Sequence record: PZ049694.1
Length of the DNA: 64,000 bases
Direction: 5' to 3' (one strand)
Source of the DNA: a phage
The translations under genes and the position numbers were made by a program. The notes beneath the pieces are model-generated. The model was not told the origin of the DNA. It did no database searches and saw only the letters and a list, made by a program, of their open reading frames with translations. Of the stretch, positions 2,872 through 60,175 are shown one piece after another (position 1 is the first letter of the stretch; every line of letters starts with the position of its first letter).

Positions 2872-3531
2872 TTAACCTCGATTCATAAATGCATTAAATA
2901 TTTGGTCATCGACAGAAATTTCTAATTCGACTTCAATTGCTTCAGCCTTTTCTTCGGGTGGTAATTCGTATCCACACACTACAATTTTTTCATCGATATC
3001 AAAATATACAGAAGCAATATGATTAATGTTATTTTCAGTTAAGTCTAAATCAACATCAACATCTTTTTGACCTACACTTAGAGGATAACTAATACGGGTT
3101 ATTTTATTATCTTTAACAAAGAGTCCACCAACATACTCTGTACTACGTTTGAAGTTTACACGTTTCCGAATTGAAAGATATGATACATCTTTACCGTGAG
3201 CTCGGCTCATAGGACATAATGAATAGCTAGAATAGGAGATGTCAAATCCTACACCTTCAATATGAACCAACGCGTCATGATTAAACCAATTATAATCATA
3301 TGCCAAATCCATTATATTGTAATATGTGAAAGGCACAGGATTAACATCATATGTTGTACCTTTAAAATCTGCCCAGGCAACGATTTCGTTATCTTTAACA
3401 ATTACAAAAATTACACCAATATGATATCCGTTATTATTTTCATTCGGCGTTATATTATAACATTGCGCATTAGGAAATTTACCATATTTAAATGGCGCAT
3501 TTTTGTGCATGTAATAAATCATGTTATTCAC
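2872..3531 (-). CDS. hypothetical protein (219 aa)
   Basis: Minus-strand ORF between primase and spackle. Confidence 0.55.
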   Translation of the reverse strand: MNNMIYYMHKNAPFKYGKFPNAQCYNITPNENNNGYHIGVIFVIVKDNEIVAWADFKGTTYDVNPVPFTYYNIMDLAYDYNWFNHDALVHIEGVGFDISYSSYSLCPMSRAHGKDVSYLSIRKRVNFKRSTEYVGGLFVKDNKITRISYPLSVGQKDVDVDLDLTENNINHIASVYFDIDEKIVVCGYELPPEEKAEAIEVELEISVDDQIFNAFMNRG

Positions 3532-3817
3532 CTGTGATTTCGGTTACGATATCTTTGTTATCGAAATTAGGGTCACAATACAAAACATAGTTGTACTGCA
3601 TGATACCGCCAGACTTAAGTTGTTCAACAACTTTATTAACCATATTAGGACGGTCTCGTTTAGTGATGTTCATGATATCAGAGAAGATTTGTTGTTCAAC
3701 ATCTTCTTGATTTGCAGTCATTGACCACTCACAGAGGTCTTTATCATAACCTGCCGTAACTGGAGCCGGTGCACATGATACTGCAAGTAAGATTGCTGCC
3801 AATGATAACTTTTTCAT
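3524..3817 (-). CDS. sp: Spackle periplasmic superinfection-exclusion protein
   Basis: 97 aa; signal peptide; AGYDKDLCEWSMTA and LKSGGIMQYNYVLYCD as remembered for T4 Sp. Confidence 0.75.
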   Translation of the reverse strand: MKKLSLAAILLAVSCAPAPVTAGYDKDLCEWSMTANQEDVEQQIFSDIMNITKRDRPNMVNKVVEQLKSGGIMQYNYVLYCDPNFDNKDIVTEITGE

Positions 3818-3846
3818 TTTAACTCCTTAGTTGATTTGATAGGACT

Positions 3847-3875
3847 ACTATACTATAGTCCATCTATAATGTAAA
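3847..3875 (-). promoter_or_regulatory. early-type sigma70 promoter cassette
   Basis: Minus strand: -35 TTTACA, 17-bp spacer, -10 TATAGT; inverted repeat aggacta...tagtcc spans the -10; upstream of sp. Confidence 0.5.
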
Positions 3876-3880
3876 CAAGT

Positions 3881-12979: not shown

Positions 12980-14649
12980 TGATGAGTGATATCGCCACCG
13001 ATTGGACGATAAGAAACACCAGTTTCTTTATCAGTTAGTACCCATTTACCAGGATTTTTTGTAATCAGAGTAGCCGTTACAGGTTCTGCTACGTCATAAC
13101 TAATAGAGCCGTCTTGAAGTACACGGCCCATGTTACGTAATTGTTTAGTCAGAAGTTCCATACCTTTATAATATGCGGCTACCGCTTTAAGTGGATTATT
13201 CTTGAAATAACCACCTAATGCAATCCAGATAATTGCAACTGCCAAATGATGATACTCGTTAAACGAACTCATCTTTCCATATTTGTAAACTAATGGATTG
13301 ATGTTAATAGTCACATTACAAGTTGTTTCATCAATAGTAAACTGTCCCCAGGTCGGATTAGCGTTGAATTCATCATACCCTGAAACAGCATAAAGCACTT
13401 TAGCTTCGTCATACAATTTTGGTCCGTAAATCTTGGTTTCGCCAAAATATCCACGAGGGTCGATAAACTTGACTTCGCCATTATCAGTAATCATAGTATT
13501 ACTGAAGTTCGGGTCACCATGAATAACAGAGTACTGTCCCTGAGAACGGTTATGATAACGAATAAGGTGTTCTAAAGCTTGTTTCAGCATTGGCTTCAGA
13601 CGCCCAATCTTAGTGTAGTTCACATGTGTGATTTTACCAAATGAATCAATCAATGGTTGAATACTTTCACAACGATCAATAACTTTCGTATAGAACTCTT
13701 TAGTGAAATCACGACGAACAGTTTCAGGACTTACAAAATAAGTGTCTGTGCTGAATTTCAGTGCATCTAAAATTGCATCAACAATTTGTGGACGAGCAAG
13801 ACTTGATTTGGATTTAATATATTCAAATGCCGGCTTACCTTTAATGCGTTCCATTTCAAAGTTATTTTCATTAACAGAAACTAACTGAGGAACTGAATCT
13901 GATTTCACTTTAAGATACCATGAAATCTCATCTTTCTGAAGAGCTCGACCCTGTTCGGTTAATGCGAATTTAGTTACAGTTTCTTCACCGATTTCAACTG
14001 CATTAAAACTACGATTAAGTTCACGAACTTCATGAGCTTTTTCAAGTTTAGGCATATCACCTAAATCAATTAGATTCATAAGCTCTGATTTATTGAATGC
14101 ACCGCTGTAAAGGAATTCTACGAAATCACGTCCTTTGCAGTATTCATGAATTTCCTCATCAGTAGAACCCATATAGAATTCCCAGTCTTTGAACTGATAA
14201 ATTCCTACAACATTACCACCTGTTGAACCTACGTTAGTGATATTTTCACCGTCGAAATTATATCGACATTCGTCGCCCTTAACATAGATTGCGTTAACAT
14301 TCCAAGACCATGAACCAAAATCGGGAATAATATCACACCAGTTAACAATTACATTATGGCCGTTTAAATCTTTGTGTAATTTAGCAAGAGCATAAGCAGA
14401 ACCATACGCTTCATCAACTGTACGAATAGTCACATTGAACCCTTCTTGCTCACAATAAGCTCGAACAGTTTCAGCAAATTTTGAATGAACTACTACAATA
14501 ATTTCGTCTGCGCCAAGGTCAGAATAAATTGTATACAAATTGCTCAGAATAGTGTCTTGTTTATAGTTAACAAGCACCTTAGGAATATGATGCGTTATTG
14601 GATACAAACGAGTTGCCAGTCCAGCACCAAGAATAACAGCTTTTTTCAT
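12964..14649 (-). CDS. bifunctional sugar-1-phosphate nucleotidyltransferase / APH-type kinase
   Basis: N-terminal ILGAGLATRL (GxGxR of NDP-sugar pyrophosphorylases such as LicC, MurU, RmlA); C-terminal VIHGDPNFSN Brenner motif and FIDPRG (APH/choline-kinase fold). Confidence 0.75.
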   Translation of the reverse strand: MKKAVILGAGLATRLYPITHHIPKVLVNYKQDTILSNLYTIYSDLGADEIIVVVHSKFAETVRAYCEQEGFNVTIRTVDEAYGSAYALAKLHKDLNGHNVIVNWCDIIPDFGSWSWNVNAIYVKGDECRYNFDGENITNVGSTGGNVVGIYQFKDWEFYMGSTDEEIHEYCKGRDFVEFLYSGAFNKSELMNLIDLGDMPKLEKAHEVRELNRSFNAVEIGEETVTKFALTEQGRALQKDEISWYLKVKSDSVPQLVSVNENNFEMERIKGKPAFEYIKSKSSLARPQIVDAILDALKFSTDTYFVSPETVRRDFTKEFYTKVIDRCESIQPLIDSFGKITHVNYTKIGRLKPMLKQALEHLIRYHNRSQGQYSVIHGDPNFSNTMITDNGEVKFIDPRGYFGETKIYGPKLYDEAKVLYAVSGYDEFNANPTWGQFTIDETTCNVTININPLVYKYGKMSSFNEYHHLAVAIIWIALGGYFKNNPLKAVAAYYKGMELLTKQLRNMGRVLQDGSISYDVAEPVTATLITKNPGKWVLTDKETGVSYRPIGGDITHQWERI

Positions 14650-39230: not shown

Positions 39231-40232
39231 TTATTTCAGTAAAGTTACTTCAGAGATTTCCTCCCAACCATCTTTATCAGTTGAAATAAAATCTGCTACG
39301 TAAAGAGCCGTACGTAATGATACATTGCGAAGACGAGATACGTTAGCCTTCATCCAGGACAATGCTTTATACGTTTCTGCATCCGTCAGACCACGTTTCT
39401 GCATCATGTCAGTAGATAATATTACATCTTCAACTCGAACCATAATCTCTTCATTAGAGTGTACTCCAAGGTCGAGATACACTGAACGAGATACTAAAGC
39501 TTGAAGGTGTGGGGCAAGTTTCGAACCGCGTTCTAACTCTTTATCGATATCAACGTTTGTAATGAAAACGATAGTACCTTCAAACTCAAATTCTTTATCA
39601 ATACCCTTATCATCGAGATAAGATGACGCAGTGCTCCAACAAACTTTGCGTTTATCTCCAGTATCTAATGCTGCTTTAAGAAGGTTCAAGATGTCCATAT
39701 CTGAGAATACGTCAACGTCGTCGATTAAGAGAACGCTGTCTGCATCACGGTTGAGCCAAAGTTGTTCGTAAAGGCCGATACCAGAGATTTTACCATTAAT
39801 GCTTTTGTATTTGATGAAACCATTATCATTAGCGTTATTAAGTGCTTTATCCAGAGAATACGTCTTACCAATACCAGCTGCACCTGAAATAATGAGTGAA
39901 CGAATTTTACCATCGATAATGCCATTCGTCATCATGTTCATTACTTTAAAGCGTTTGTTGATACGAGTTTTCATATCTTCAGTGCTTTCAACGACTGCAA
40001 CTGGTGATGTCTCAACTCCTTCCATTACGATGTCTGATTTGAAGACCCATACTCCACGTTCAGAACCGTCAATCATAACGAAGATTTTACCATCACCTAA
40101 GTGGGAACATTCAGGATTAAGCTTTGCCGGGAACCAGGTCTTTGTGGCAACATAAGAACCAGAGATTTCGTTATTACGATAGATACCTTTTTTGATTTGA
40201 ACGTTGAACATTTTATTCTCCAATTTACTCAT
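39231..40232 (-). CDS. P-loop NTPase (AAA-like ATPase) of unknown function
   Basis: 333 aa; Walker A GAAGIGKTY; Walker B VLLIDDVD. Confidence 0.6.
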   Translation of the reverse strand: MSKLENKMFNVQIKKGIYRNNEISGSYVATKTWFPAKLNPECSHLGDGKIFVMIDGSERGVWVFKSDIVMEGVETSPVAVVESTEDMKTRINKRFKVMNMMTNGIIDGKIRSLIISGAAGIGKTYSLDKALNNANDNGFIKYKSINGKISGIGLYEQLWLNRDADSVLLIDDVDVFSDMDILNLLKAALDTGDKRKVCWSTASSYLDDKGIDKEFEFEGTIVFITNVDIDKELERGSKLAPHLQALVSRSVYLDLGVHSNEEIMVRVEDVILSTDMMQKRGLTDAETYKALSWMKANVSRLRNVSLRTALYVADFISTDKDGWEEISEVTLLK

Positions 40233-40309
40233 TTCGTTTCGATAGGTCTATAGTATCATATCCTAAAAGCATGTACACTACTTTTTTAAAAATATTTTAA
40301 CCCCCTAAA

Positions 40310-40325
40310 GGGACCCGAAGGTCCC
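40310..40325 (-). terminator. UUCG-tetraloop hairpin, terminator-like
   Basis: gggacc-cgaa-ggtccc immediately downstream of the 40331-40612 gene; weak U-run. Confidence 0.45.
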
Positions 40326-40330
40326 CACAT

Positions 40331-40612
40331 TTACTTATCGCACTTAGCAACATAATTAGGCATATCACAGAATACGGAGCGAGTAACTACTCGGCCCTTT
40401 GACCATGCTTCAGTTGCTTGTCCGGCTGTGCTATTAATATAGCTTGATCTAATGTTCTCAATACCCTGAGAATGTGAGGCATTTACCGAACCATTAGAAG
40501 ACCCAGAAGACTGGTTACCGCCAGCTCCTGCACTACCGCTGGCTGCACCCGTGGTAGCACCAACAGAGAATGCCATCATTACTGCGAATAAACCAATTAC
40601 TAATTTTTTCAT
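40331..40612 (-). CDS. secreted Gly/Ser-rich protein (93 aa)
   Basis: Signal peptide MKKLVIGLFAVMMAFSVGA; Gly/Ser-rich middle; two C-terminal Cys; late promoter upstream. Confidence 0.55.
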   Translation of the reverse strand: MKKLVIGLFAVMMAFSVGATTGAASGSAGAGGNQSSGSSNGSVNASHSQGIENIRSSYINSTAGQATEAWSKGRVVTRSVFCDMPNYVAKCDK

Positions 40613-40643
40613 ATTTACCTCAAGTTAATGGTTATTTATCTAC

Positions 40644-41657
40644 TTATTTATAGTAAGAATTATGATTTTCGAGATAGACTTGTTCAAGGAAGTCATCCCA
40701 GAAACTCATATCTACTTTTTGTTGCATACCGTTCTTGGCCGCTTGTTCTGACGCATGTTCAACTTGGTCAACGATATCTTCTAGGAATTCTTGTACAGTT
40801 TTAAACGTATGTTTACCAAGCTTAACATCGAGAATAAATGGAGCATCCTGAAGTGGGTAAACCAAGTCACCAGTTTTGTAAATTTCCAATAGTTGGAGTC
40901 CACCACGACAAGCATGACTTAGAGCTTTCCAGTCAATGCCCTCATTCGCTTCAGCCTTACGAGCACGTTCGCCATATTCAGCATCAAGTTTATTCAAAGA
41001 CTGCTTAAGCTCAATAAGAGAAAGTGTTGTCTGATATTTACGACCCAACACGGTATAGAACGTTTGCGGGCCTGTTTTCTCGTGGTTATGGAATACCCAT
41101 TCACAGAACTCGTTTTCAGGGAGTCTGTGTTTGATATCTTCTACCTTAGTACGACGAAGTCTATCAGGGATTCCTTCTTGATAGTCGACCCACTGGTCAG
41201 GGATTTGATTAACTACTTTCAATACATCACGTAATGCGGCCAAACGAGAACCCTTGACACCGTATTTAGAAGCTTGCTTGCGGACATATCCTAAATAGGA
41301 TTTCATGTTAGTTGTATAAAACCGTGAACGATTGTCTTGGATAAATTTCCATACATCAGGCAAATCAGATTTAACCACTAGTTCAGGCGGAGTGTGAAGC
41401 ATATCCAATGCTACAGTTTCACCATCTGCTGCTAATTTAAAGAAATACTTAAGACTGTACAGTTCATGGTCAATATCATCTTTGGTGTTTTTAGATGATG
41501 TGTTGTTAGTGTTTTTACTCATATGCTCTTTAACATTTCCGATAAGAATATCGCGAGCAGGAGGAACAAAGATTTCTTTAAAATCGACGTCAGATTCAGG
41601 AGTAGACGTTCCATAAAGGTGGCTACCAAAGTAGCCTTTCATAATTGTTTTCATCAT
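40644..41657 (-). CDS. Pol-beta-superfamily nucleotidyltransferase-domain protein (337 aa)
   Basis: N-terminal GSHLYGTSTPESDVDF fits the hG[GS]x9-13DhD nucleotidyltransferase signature. Confidence 0.55.
   Translation of the reverse strand: MMKTIMKGYFGSHLYGTSTPESDVDFKEIFVPPARDILIGNVKEHMSKNTNNTSSKNTKDDIDHELYSLKYFFKLAADGETVALDMLHTPPELVVKSDLPDVWKFIQDNRSRFYTTNMKSYLGYVRKQASKYGVKGSRLAALRDVLKVVNQIPDQWVDYQEGIPDRLRRTKVEDIKHRLPENEFCEWVFHNHEKTGPQTFYTVLGRKYQTTLSLIELKQSLNKLDAEYGERARKAEANEGIDWKALSHACRGGLQLLEIYKTGDLVYPLQDAPFILDVKLGKHTFKTVQEFLEDIVDQVEHASEQAAKNGMQQKVDMSFWDDFLEQVYLENHNSYYK
40645..40652 (-). promoter_or_regulatory. T4-type late promoter (TATAAATA)
   Basis: Plus strand tatttata 33 nt upstream of the secreted-protein gene; overlaps the stop of the upstream gene. 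Confidence 0.5.
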
Positions 41658-42127
41658 TTAGCCTTATATTCAAGAGTAGGACAGACTTTTTCTTTACGAG
41701 CTTTAAGGTATTCACCTATTAATGATTTCTTACGTTCAATAGGTCCAAGTCCATTTTTAATTCGTTCTTGGTTTTGTGCAATGAACTCAATTTCTTTATA
41801 ATATTTTCTGTCGTTATATTTGTCTAACAACCAAGACGGACCAATTACCAACCCGGCAGAAATAAAAGCCATGACTGCTACCATTAAAATGCCTACGCCA
41901 ATTGAGGCTGGAACTAATGTCCATAGACTGCTAAAAACAAAGAATCTAGTTAAAATTTCCTGGCCAATGATTGTTACTGCTGCTAAAATCGCAAATCCGA
42001 TAATTGAAACAGACAATACTGGGATTAACGTTTTCCAAAAATAAGCACACAACGTTTTAGGGCGATTCCATGTACTATTGAACGCGGCATAAATTTTAAA
42101 GTGCCAAGAGTTTTCATTGATAATCAT
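41654..42127 (-). CDS. membrane protein (157 aa)
   Basis: Three or more hydrophobic helices; stop overlaps the nucleotidyltransferase start. Confidence 0.5.
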   Translation of the reverse strand: MIINENSWHFKIYAAFNSTWNRPKTLCAYFWKTLIPVLSVSIIGFAILAAVTIIGQEILTRFFVFSSLWTLVPASIGVGILMVAVMAFISAGLVIGPSWLLDKYNDRKYYKEIEFIAQNQERIKNGLGPIERKKSLIGEYLKARKEKVCPTLEYKAK

Positions 42128-42136
42128 AATAATTCC

Positions 42137-42679
42137 TTATTTCAAAGTCGGGATAATAGAATCAAGATAAGCTTTAAGAGCTACAGCTTCGTCTTTGGTA
42201 AATGTAGTAACATGTGAACGTAAATCATCATTTTGGCGAATAGTTACGACATCACCATCTTCATAAGAATTCATGACTGCCAAAGTCGTGGTATAGTTTG
42301 GAGCTATTGGATTAATAATGTAAGCACCACGACTGATACCCCATTTAAGTTTAGCCTTTTCAGGTGGTTCGGATTCCAAGAATTCTTTCACCTTAGCAAC
42401 GAATGTTTTCCAGTTATCGATAGAAAGGCATTTGTCTTCAGTTTCGATATTAGCACCGTTATAAAGCCCATGATAAAAACGAGCCTGAAGGTCTCCACCA
42501 ATATTAATTGCCGATGCATGACCAGGCGGATTGAGTTTCAAAATCTCGTCTAGTTCCATAGGACAAATAGTAATACCATCATCTTCCTGAGTCAGAACGT
42601 ATACATTACCACGTTTTTCGATAGTCAAATCACCGAACAGTTCGGTTGTTTCAATTACAGTTTTCATATTATTCACCAA
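42137..42679 (-). CDS. hypothetical protein (180 aa)
   Basis: Minus-strand ORF. Confidence 0.5.
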   Translation of the reverse strand: MVNNMKTVIETTELFGDLTIEKRGNVYVLTQEDDGITICPMELDEILKLNPPGHASAINIGGDLQARFYHGLYNGANIETEDKCLSIDNWKTFVAKVKEFLESEPPEKAKLKWGISRGAYIINPIAPNYTTTLAVMNSYEDGDVVTIRQNDDLRSHVTTFTKDEAVALKAYLDSIIPTLK

Positions 42680-60020: not shown

Positions 60021-60097
<77 letters not shown>

Positions 60098-60100
60098 GAT

Positions 60101-60175
60101 TGGTGACCCTGGCTGGTTTCGATCCAGCTACCTATCAGTTATGAGCTGACAGCTCTCCCATTGAGCTACAGGGCC
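60101..60175 (-). tRNA. tRNA with CAU anticodon (Ile-lysidine type or Met)
   Basis: 75 nt cloverleaf: acceptor GGCCCTG/CAGGGTC, D-arm GCTC...GAGC, anticodon loop CTCATAA, T-arm GCTGG...CCAGC, encoded CCA. Confidence 0.8.

Follow-up and report, generated by a model that had tools for sequence, protein, structure and literature searches.

A long-form RlaP nucleotidyltransferase, the orthologue of T4 NrdC.11, as a candidate RNA 3'-end repair enzyme in a T4-like phage

We analysed a stretch of phage DNA 64,000 nucleotides (nt) long (sequence record PZ049694.1), referred to below as the window, and focused on four neighbouring genes on its minus strand (39231–42127) that make up the nrdC.10–nrdC.11 segment of a T4-like phage. 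The gene of main interest (40644–41657, minus strand) encodes a nucleotidyltransferase of 337 amino acids (aa), or 336 aa if translation begins at a second ATG at 41654. Sequence comparison identified this protein as the orthologue of T4 NrdC.11 (NP_049709; 94% identity) and as a long-form member of the RlaP family. We favour, with moderate confidence, the view that NrdC.11 is an RNA 3'-end repair enzyme that acts with the phage proteins Pnkp and Rnl1 against anticodon nucleases of the host. An earlier reading made from the DNA letters (below, the sequence-only reading) had called the locus an anti-defence candidate on the grounds that a nucleotidyltransferase with a membrane partner resembles signalling or toxin systems; the label can be kept, with NrdC.11 as the candidate and RNA repair as its grounds, and the signalling or toxin grounds are not supported. 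The genes themselves are long-annotated T4 open reading frames (ORFs), and both the family assignment of NrdC.11 and the role proposed for it have already been published.

The T4 Pnkp-Rnl1 pathway is the classic case of a virus mending tRNAs cut by a host suicide nuclease, and RNA repair in T4 serves as a counter to host anticodon nucleases. The nuclease RloC removes the wobble nucleotide, and plain religation then gives a dead tRNA. An enzyme that restored the nucleotide removed by RloC would be the next move of the phage in this arms race, and NrdC.11, being nearly universal in T4-like phages, is the obvious candidate for such a restoration.

The Pseudomonas enzymes PfRlaP and PaRlaP, which are encoded in RtcB operons, added one or two nucleoside monophosphates to the 3'-OH of RNA in vitro; they preferred Mn2+, were inactive on DNA and protein, favoured mimics of damaged tRNA, and showed little nucleotide specificity (10.64898/2025.12.29.696909). 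Given the two parts of a tRNA mimic after cleavage in vitro, RlaP preferred the 5' half to the acceptor-end fragment, and it partly rescued the aminoacylation of nucleotide-deprived tRNA (10.64898/2025.12.29.696909). The same study placed T4 NrdC.11 in the RlaP family as a member of unknown function (network cluster 5), and the 3'-OH product fits a ligase that uses a 5'-phosphate, such as Rnl1 (10.64898/2025.12.29.696909). NrdC.11 had been seen as a predicted nucleotidyltransferase in 2006 (PMC1524935), and Iyer et al. predicted that phage RlaP restores RloC-type nucleotide losses before ligation; in jumbo phages the distribution of RlaP mirrors that of RNA ligase (PMC7824862).

The sequence-only reading had recognised a Pol-beta-type nucleotidyltransferase from the segment GSHLYGTSTPESDVDF, and this identification proved correct. 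The segment occupies residues 11–26, and the protein matched the Pfam family RlaP (PF10127) with 47.6 bits (gathering cutoff 23; E = 2.3e-12), a match that covers residues 7–136 only and profile positions 23–143 of 249. The protein also matched phrog_388, annotated ‘nucleotidyltransferase’, with E = 5e-137. A precomputed PF10127 hit was present in 120 of 120 close homologues among the matches listed, and the family as a whole is large (3454 clusters at 50% identity matching at E up to 1e-3). Conservation was examined in an alignment of 135 diverse full-length homologues, in which G11 and S12 were invariant and D23, D25, D61, D63 and D85 were conserved in at least 90% of the sequences. A second set of residues, K131, Y132, R138, Y228, G229, R231, D242, W243, K244, H248 and R251, was invariant or nearly so. 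The Pol-beta G[GS] and DxD motifs are thereby present, together with further acidic residues.

An AlphaFold2 model computed from the alignment of 135 homologues had a pLDDT of 94.4 and showed an N-terminal nucleotidyltransferase domain (with D61/D63 on model strand 62–68), a beta-rich insert at residues 155–209, and a C-terminal helical domain. The best Foldseek matches in the PDB were all weak and comprised HalB, 3c18 and kanamycin nucleotidyltransferase/ANT(4'). Sequence searches of the PDB with the nucleotidyltransferase, with the profile of 135 sequences and with a canonical RlaP profile returned nothing meaningful, and PADLOC and NCBIfam held no match for any of the four proteins of the locus. 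In a direct profile comparison with canonical RlaP the probability was 94% (E = 1e-7), over the N-terminal ~130 residues only. The phage enzyme thus shares with RlaP an N-terminal Pol-beta domain carrying the GS and DxD motifs but differs from it in length, at about 330 aa against about 255–275 aa for the canonical protein. Because the alignment of long and short forms is limited to the first ~130 residues, we regard the long form, as far as sequence can tell, as a distinct subfamily of RlaP.

The neighbourhoods of bacterial relatives connect this long form to RNA repair. We scanned one genome per prokaryotic species and obtained 80 bacterial or archaeal loci with full-length relatives at 32–53% identity. 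Neighbouring ORFs within 6 kb were clustered with a simple ORF caller and BLAST, and representatives were checked with Pfam. RNA-repair genes (RtcB, Pnkp, Hen1, Ro60) were found within this distance, mostly on the same strand, in at least 14 of the 80 loci; the clustering produced one artefactual antisense cluster and missed singletons, so that this figure is a lower bound. By gene, RtcB and bacterial Pnkp each occurred in 6 loci, and Hen1 and Ro60/TROVE each in 4. One example was a Nitrosospira locus (L051, 1558–9161), in which the order was Ro60, RtcB, an ORF, the long form, RlaP and Hen1. We concluded that the NrdC.11-like long form is itself tied to RNA repair, beyond what holds for the family in general.

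The same loci revealed that the two forms of the enzyme often occur in tandem. A canonical short RlaP lay directly downstream of the long form in 11 loci, and a second family member lay further off in two more. These short neighbours were about 255–275 aa long, and the two that were scanned matched Pfam RlaP at E values of 1e-51 to 1e-62. The bacterial long forms are about 310–350 aa in length; loci with a short RlaP as the next gene include L018, L030, L046, L064, L068, L073, L075, L080 and L082. Three contigs of metagenome-assembled genomes with NrdC.11 relatives (L019, L020, L026) also encode an SNF2/ResIII helicase and a UDG-domain protein, whose genes keep a conserved order; these may be contigs of phages or other mobile elements that were binned into the genomes.

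Among phages, we compared the records of NrdC.11 with those of its presumed partners. T4 Pnkp and Rnl1 were searched by tblastn against a phage collection and the records were counted by host genus. For Escherichia the counts were 609 for NrdC.11, 636 for Pnkp and 637 for Rnl1; the corresponding values were 286, 286 and 287 for Klebsiella, 83 for all three in Shigella, 75, 77 and 77 for Aeromonas, and 69, 70 and 69 for Acinetobacter. Such near-identical counts are compatible with a shared pathway. The region of the window is 99.5% identical to Escherichia phage vB_EcoM_JQD51 (GenBank PV204681), which encodes Pnkp and Rnl1 about 80 kb from its nrdC.11 locus; neither gene is found within the window. 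The T4 Pnkp-Rnl1 pathway is the proposed working context of NrdC.11, in view of the genus counts and of a 3'-OH product suited to Rnl1; the pathway genes are not adjacent to nrdC.11. The JQD51 proteins are 75% (Pnkp) and 67% (Rnl1) identical to those of T4.

Taken as a mechanism, the proposal would run as follows. A host anticodon nuclease would cut and trim a tRNA, as in the example of RloC, where the wobble nucleotide is lost. Pnkp would first heal the tRNA ends, NrdC.11 would then extend the RNA 3'-OH, chiefly on tRNA halves, by one or two untemplated nucleotides, and Rnl1 would seal the restored tRNA last. Both Pnkp and Rnl1 would be supplied from elsewhere in the phage genome. The membrane protein, the 93-aa protein and NrdC.10, which are the products of the other three genes, would not be required partners, and the four genes would be neighbours with separate functions. 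The analysis established the orthology, the membership in the family, the conservation of catalytic residues, the class of fold, the RNA-repair genes around bacterial relatives and the fact that the neighbours occur independently. The reaction assigned to NrdC.11, the RNA on which it would act, its joint work with Pnkp and Rnl1 and its part in counter-defence are inferred.

Several observations weigh against this account. Laboratory growth of T4 tolerates a deletion of nrdC.11–mobD.3 (PMC9825161); such dispensability fits an accessory role and is silent on which role that is. The matching genus counts may reflect only the common descent of T4-like phages. The beta-rich insert (155–209) and the C-terminal helices do not align with canonical RlaP, and the substrate could differ from that of the characterised enzymes because the alignment stops at ~130 residues. 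The best solved structural neighbour, HalB, is a synthase of DNA oligomers, and not an RNA enzyme. The tandem loci, in which the long form stands beside a canonical RlaP, suggest that the two forms are not redundant, and this in turn suggests a division of labour between long-form and short nucleotidyltransferases. Lastly, the membrane gene, the nucleotidyltransferase gene and the ATPase gene follow one another in the same order in phages as far apart as Tevenvirinae and the T4-like phages of Acinetobacter; given this order and the translational overlap described below, some functional link among the three genes is conceivable.

The alternative that survived best holds that the target is the 3' acceptor end of tRNA, which the enzyme would repair or tail in the manner of a CCA-adding enzyme, and not a broken anticodon loop. 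We judged it unlikely. It gains from the breadth of RlaP enzymes, which extend many RNA 3'-OH ends with little nucleotide specificity, from T4-like phages carrying tRNAs of their own (two in the window), and from Vibrio phage 11895-B1, where a CCA-adding enzyme is encoded two genes upstream of the NrdC.11 homologue. However, Pfam gave no match of the nucleotidyltransferase to a CCA-adding or poly(A) polymerase family, and no CCA enzyme appeared among the structural matches listed, where the sole match of CCA/poly(A) type was Cid1 at a probability of 0.06–0.08. In addition, RlaP preferred the 5' tRNA half over the acceptor-end fragment in vitro, and the bacterial relatives adjoin ligases and end-healing enzymes. 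The sequence-only reading had set against its own proposal the case of a tRNA CCA-adding or repair enzyme unconnected with the genes around it; homology and context essentially favour the tRNA repair enzyme, unlinked to its neighbours, and speak against the CCA-adding identity. In the 11895-B1 locus (L004, 2275–5921) the gene of the CCA-adding enzyme is annotated as split by an inserted ORF, and tRNA genes lie about 5 kb away.

The structural match to HalB, combined with the gene order, raised the question of whether the membrane protein and the nucleotidyltransferase form a pair like that of the Hailong system, in which HalB (PDB 9dbh), a template-independent oligo-dA synthase of about 217 aa, is paired with the membrane channel HalA. 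Alternatively, an oligonucleotide made by the phage could manipulate a Hailong system of the host. NrdC.11 would in either case make a HalB-like oligonucleotide, which would gate the membrane protein or top up the inhibitory signal of host Hailong; a signal topped up in this way would keep the host defence off. We regard both the pairing and the proposed oligonucleotide as very improbable. The membrane and nucleotidyltransferase genes are separate in many phages, T4 is without the membrane gene, sequence similarity of the enzyme to HalB was not detected, and a sequence search found no similarity of the phage membrane protein to HalA. Among the bacterial relatives, a small membrane neighbour (close and on the same strand) was found upstream in 1 of 25 cases and downstream in 1 of 35. 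A milder version, in which long-form RlaPs are functionally distinct and work alongside canonical RlaP, is suggested by the loci that contain both.

There is an equally slim chance that the substrate is a small molecule or a protein, which the enzyme would adenylylate as do aminoglycoside nucleotidyltransferases or enzymes like the MNT antitoxin: the fold-level matches on which this would depend were low-scoring (TM 0.2–0.3), the characterised RlaP enzymes labelled neither protein nor DNA, and the family context is RNA repair. The possibility of a CD-NTase-like cyclic-nucleotide synthase, or of CBASS-type interference, which the sequence-only reading had put forward for a Foldseek check, can be set aside almost entirely: the general Pol-beta motif is all that speaks for it, no CD-NTase, cGAS or DncV-like fold was found among the structural matches listed (best 50 and best 60; the same lists held no CCA-adding fold), and PADLOC gave no match.

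We return to repair by NrdC.11 with Pnkp and Rnl1 as the preferred account, in which the neighbouring genes have no necessary part, and turn to those genes. An ORF check confirmed the four genes and the motifs that the sequence-only reading had described, at their coordinates on the minus strand. The four ORFs are real genes, because homologues of each are conserved in between 103 and 1518 phage records; at the DNA level the region matched 784 records of T4-like phages. Upstream of the nucleotidyltransferase gene lies that of a 157-aa membrane protein (41654–42127, minus strand; phrog_944, E = 3e-52) with hydrophobic segments at residues of about 29–65 and 62–102. The overlap behind the translational coupling proposed in the sequence-only reading is present: the stop of the membrane ORF and the start of the nucleotidyltransferase share the 4 nt ATGA, or a single nucleotide if translation begins at the second ATG.

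Searches of Pfam, NCBIfam, PADLOC and the PDB with the membrane protein gave no match. Its family is present in 1090 phage records, and all homologues with a source name, among the matches listed, came from phages or from phage-sized or phage-like contigs. Members from T4-like phages, ICP1 (gp169), phiR1-37 (g265) and an Erwinia jumbo phage share the N-terminal motifs SWH[FY] and LCxYFWxT and, after the transmembrane helices, a basic C-terminal motif, EY[LI]KAKKxK[IV]CPx[IL]E[FWY]. One conserved cysteine stands on each side of the membrane segments, and no Pfam family covers these proteins (window 41654–42127; L003 4923–5345; L005 5001–5501; L006 5001–5480; L010 5178–5639).

Comparison across phages showed that the genes are separable. 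In ICP1, phiR1-37 and the Erwinia jumbo phage a homologue of the membrane protein occurs with no nucleotidyltransferase within 5 kb. Conversely, Caulobacter phage Cr30, Vibrio phages K571 and 11895-B1, Aeromonas phage AsFcp_4 and T4 have the nucleotidyltransferase but lack the membrane protein, and each of the three proteins (nucleotidyltransferase, membrane protein, ATPase) is found alone in some other phages. We concluded that the three do not form an obligate unit. The suggestion that nucleotidyltransferase and membrane partner constitute a signalling or toxin system is not supported, given this separability and the arrangement in T4, where the homing endonuclease gene mobD occupies the place of the membrane gene. 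What appears as a cluster is a conserved gene order in a variable part of T4-like genomes, and not a new signalling or toxin system.

The gene farthest downstream of the four encodes a 326-aa AAA+ ATPase (39231–40211, minus strand; phrog_1250, E = 1e-161), the equivalent of T4 NrdC.10 (NP_049708; 78% identity). The longest ORF starts at 40232; the likely start is an ATG with GGAG ahead of it, at 40211. A P-loop ATPase with Walker A and B motifs had been read from the sequence, and we located these motifs as GAAGIGKT (residues 110–117) and LLIDDVD (160–166). Invariant positions include G110–T117 of Walker A, D164/D165, N219 (sensor 1), R242 in an SRS motif and R300 (sensor 2). An AlphaFold2 model (pLDDT 89) showed the fold of an AAA+ core plus lid, and Foldseek returned 149 matches with E values no higher than 1e-3, of which every one listed was an AAA+ protein; the Pfam AAA hits were individually below threshold.

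NSF, dynein, RuvB, RFC, ORC/Cdc6, NtrC and MoxR were matched at similar scores (E about 1e-5). NrdC.10 shares with AAA+ proteins of the clamp-loader, RuvB and initiator type the Walker motifs, the sensor-1 asparagine, the SRS arginine and the sensor-2 arginine, but its matches are spread over many clades and it has a beta-rich N-terminal domain of its own. This unique domain spans about 65 aa, and the jumbo-phage homologues lack it. By its motifs and its model NrdC.10 is an AAA+ ATPase, of unassigned clade. In Vibrio phage D509 (inside a replication module) and in phiKp_21 and EC.P1 (jumbo-phage genomes or genome segments) the ATPase is found on its own. This, together with a hairpin and a promoter-like sequence between the two genes, speaks against its inclusion in a cluster with the nucleotidyltransferase.

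Between nrdC.11 and nrdC.10 lies a gene (40331–40612, minus strand) for a 93-aa protein (phrog_2243, E = 1.5e-37). Its residues 1–22 are hydrophobic, a predicted signal peptide, and it also has a Gly/Ser-rich stretch and, towards the C terminus, two cysteines. The gene was found in only 103 phage records and is absent from T4 and RB69. The match of its product to YbgS was weak and sub-threshold (E = 7e-4); a DNA search of E. coli genomes that followed this lead gave no match, and we claim no host origin. The octamer TATAAATA, the consensus motif of T4 late promoters, stands at 40645–40652 on the minus strand as a putative promoter; it overlaps the final codons of the nucleotidyltransferase gene, and the start codon of the 93-aa gene lies 33 nt further downstream. 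The description of a late-promoter motif ahead of a Gly/Ser-rich protein with a predicted signal peptide was therefore accurate. The motif at 40645–40652 is conserved in phage G53; T4 and RB69 carry TATAAATG at this position and are both without the 93-aa gene. The number of TATAAATA motifs in the window was not above chance (6 against 7.35 expected on both strands), and all six are on the minus, transcribed strand (306, 32625, 40645, 44063, 59317 and 63088). The 93-aa gene is an accessory insert of narrow distribution that has a late-promoter motif of its own.

Directly after nrdC.11, T4 and RB69 have a GC-rich hairpin with a UUCG loop, and ahead of the next gene stands a promoter-like sequence. 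The phage of the window has a hairpin of this type, GGGACC-UUCG-GGUCCC, at 40310–40325 on the minus strand, in a position matching the terminator-like hairpin of T4 and RB69, with the 93-aa gene lying between the stop of the nucleotidyltransferase and the hairpin. Its predicted folding energy of −12.9 kcal/mol was not better than that of shuffled sequence (z −0.83), and its T-run has only 3 T. The hairpin is supported because its position is conserved and its stem shows compensatory changes among the phage of the window, T4 and RB69, and not by folding energy. Upstream of the ATPase gene is the promoter-like sequence GTGTACA-N16-TACTAT (40250–40278, minus strand), with the T4 counterpart GTTTACA-N17-TACTAT. 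A scan of the region for sigma-70 promoters and terminators found no excess over shuffled sequence; in it the promoter-like sequence was below threshold and the hairpin was missed. The nucleotidyltransferase and the ATPase appear to be in different transcription units, because the hairpin and the promoter-like sequence lie between them.

What lies between nrdC.11 and nrdC.10 varies from phage to phage. The slot holds the gene of the 93-aa protein with the predicted signal peptide in the phage of the window and in G53, is empty in T4, contains a 72-aa basic protein (ORF102c) and a duplicated promoter-like sequence in RB69, and has two other small ORFs in Acinetobacter phage Konradin (slots: window 40200–40700; L094, RB69, 3425–3880; L095, G53, 2420–2900; L010 6980–7625; L002, T4, 13310–13480).

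Gene equivalences to T4 were established by local tblastn against the T4 reference annotation. The nrdC.11 and nrdC.10 orthologues keep the T4 order and orientation and lie, as in T4, between mobD.1 and nrdC.9. The phage of the window differs from T4 in having the membrane gene where T4 has mobD and in having the 93-aa gene, lacking in T4, which separates nrdC.11 from nrdC.10. Upstream of the membrane ORF, at a distance of 9 nt, is a gene for a 180-aa MobD.1/y05I-like protein (42137–42679, minus strand; 43% to T4 MobD.1) that matched Pfam T4_y05I_N (E = 2e-36) and T4_y05I_C (E = 1e-13). A 175-aa gene 3' of the ATPase is equivalent to T4 NrdC.8 (83% identity).

The locus is a mosaic. Its nucleotidyltransferase is of T4 type (94% to T4, compared with about 82% for RB69-type phages), whereas the membrane gene, the 93-aa gene and NrdC.10 are of RB69/Mosigvirus type: the membrane gene is 92% identical to that of RB69, and NrdC.10 is 99–100% identical in Mosigvirus-type phages such as G53, as against 78% to T4.

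In the GenBank record of JQD51 (PV204681) the product names are displaced by one gene. The label ‘Nucleotidyltransferase’ stands on the 93-aa ORF, ‘ATP-binding protein’ on the NrdC.9-like ORF, ‘polynucleotide kinase’ on a 63-aa ORF, and ‘RNA ligase enzyme’ on the ORF that precedes the real ligase. In many other records NrdC.10 or NrdC.11 bears the label ‘thioredoxin’, which seems to derive from the gene name nrdC. Elsewhere in the window, adjacent genes for tRNA-Arg(TCT) and tRNA-Met(CAT) at 60021–60175 on the minus strand were the sole Rfam/ARAGORN matches.

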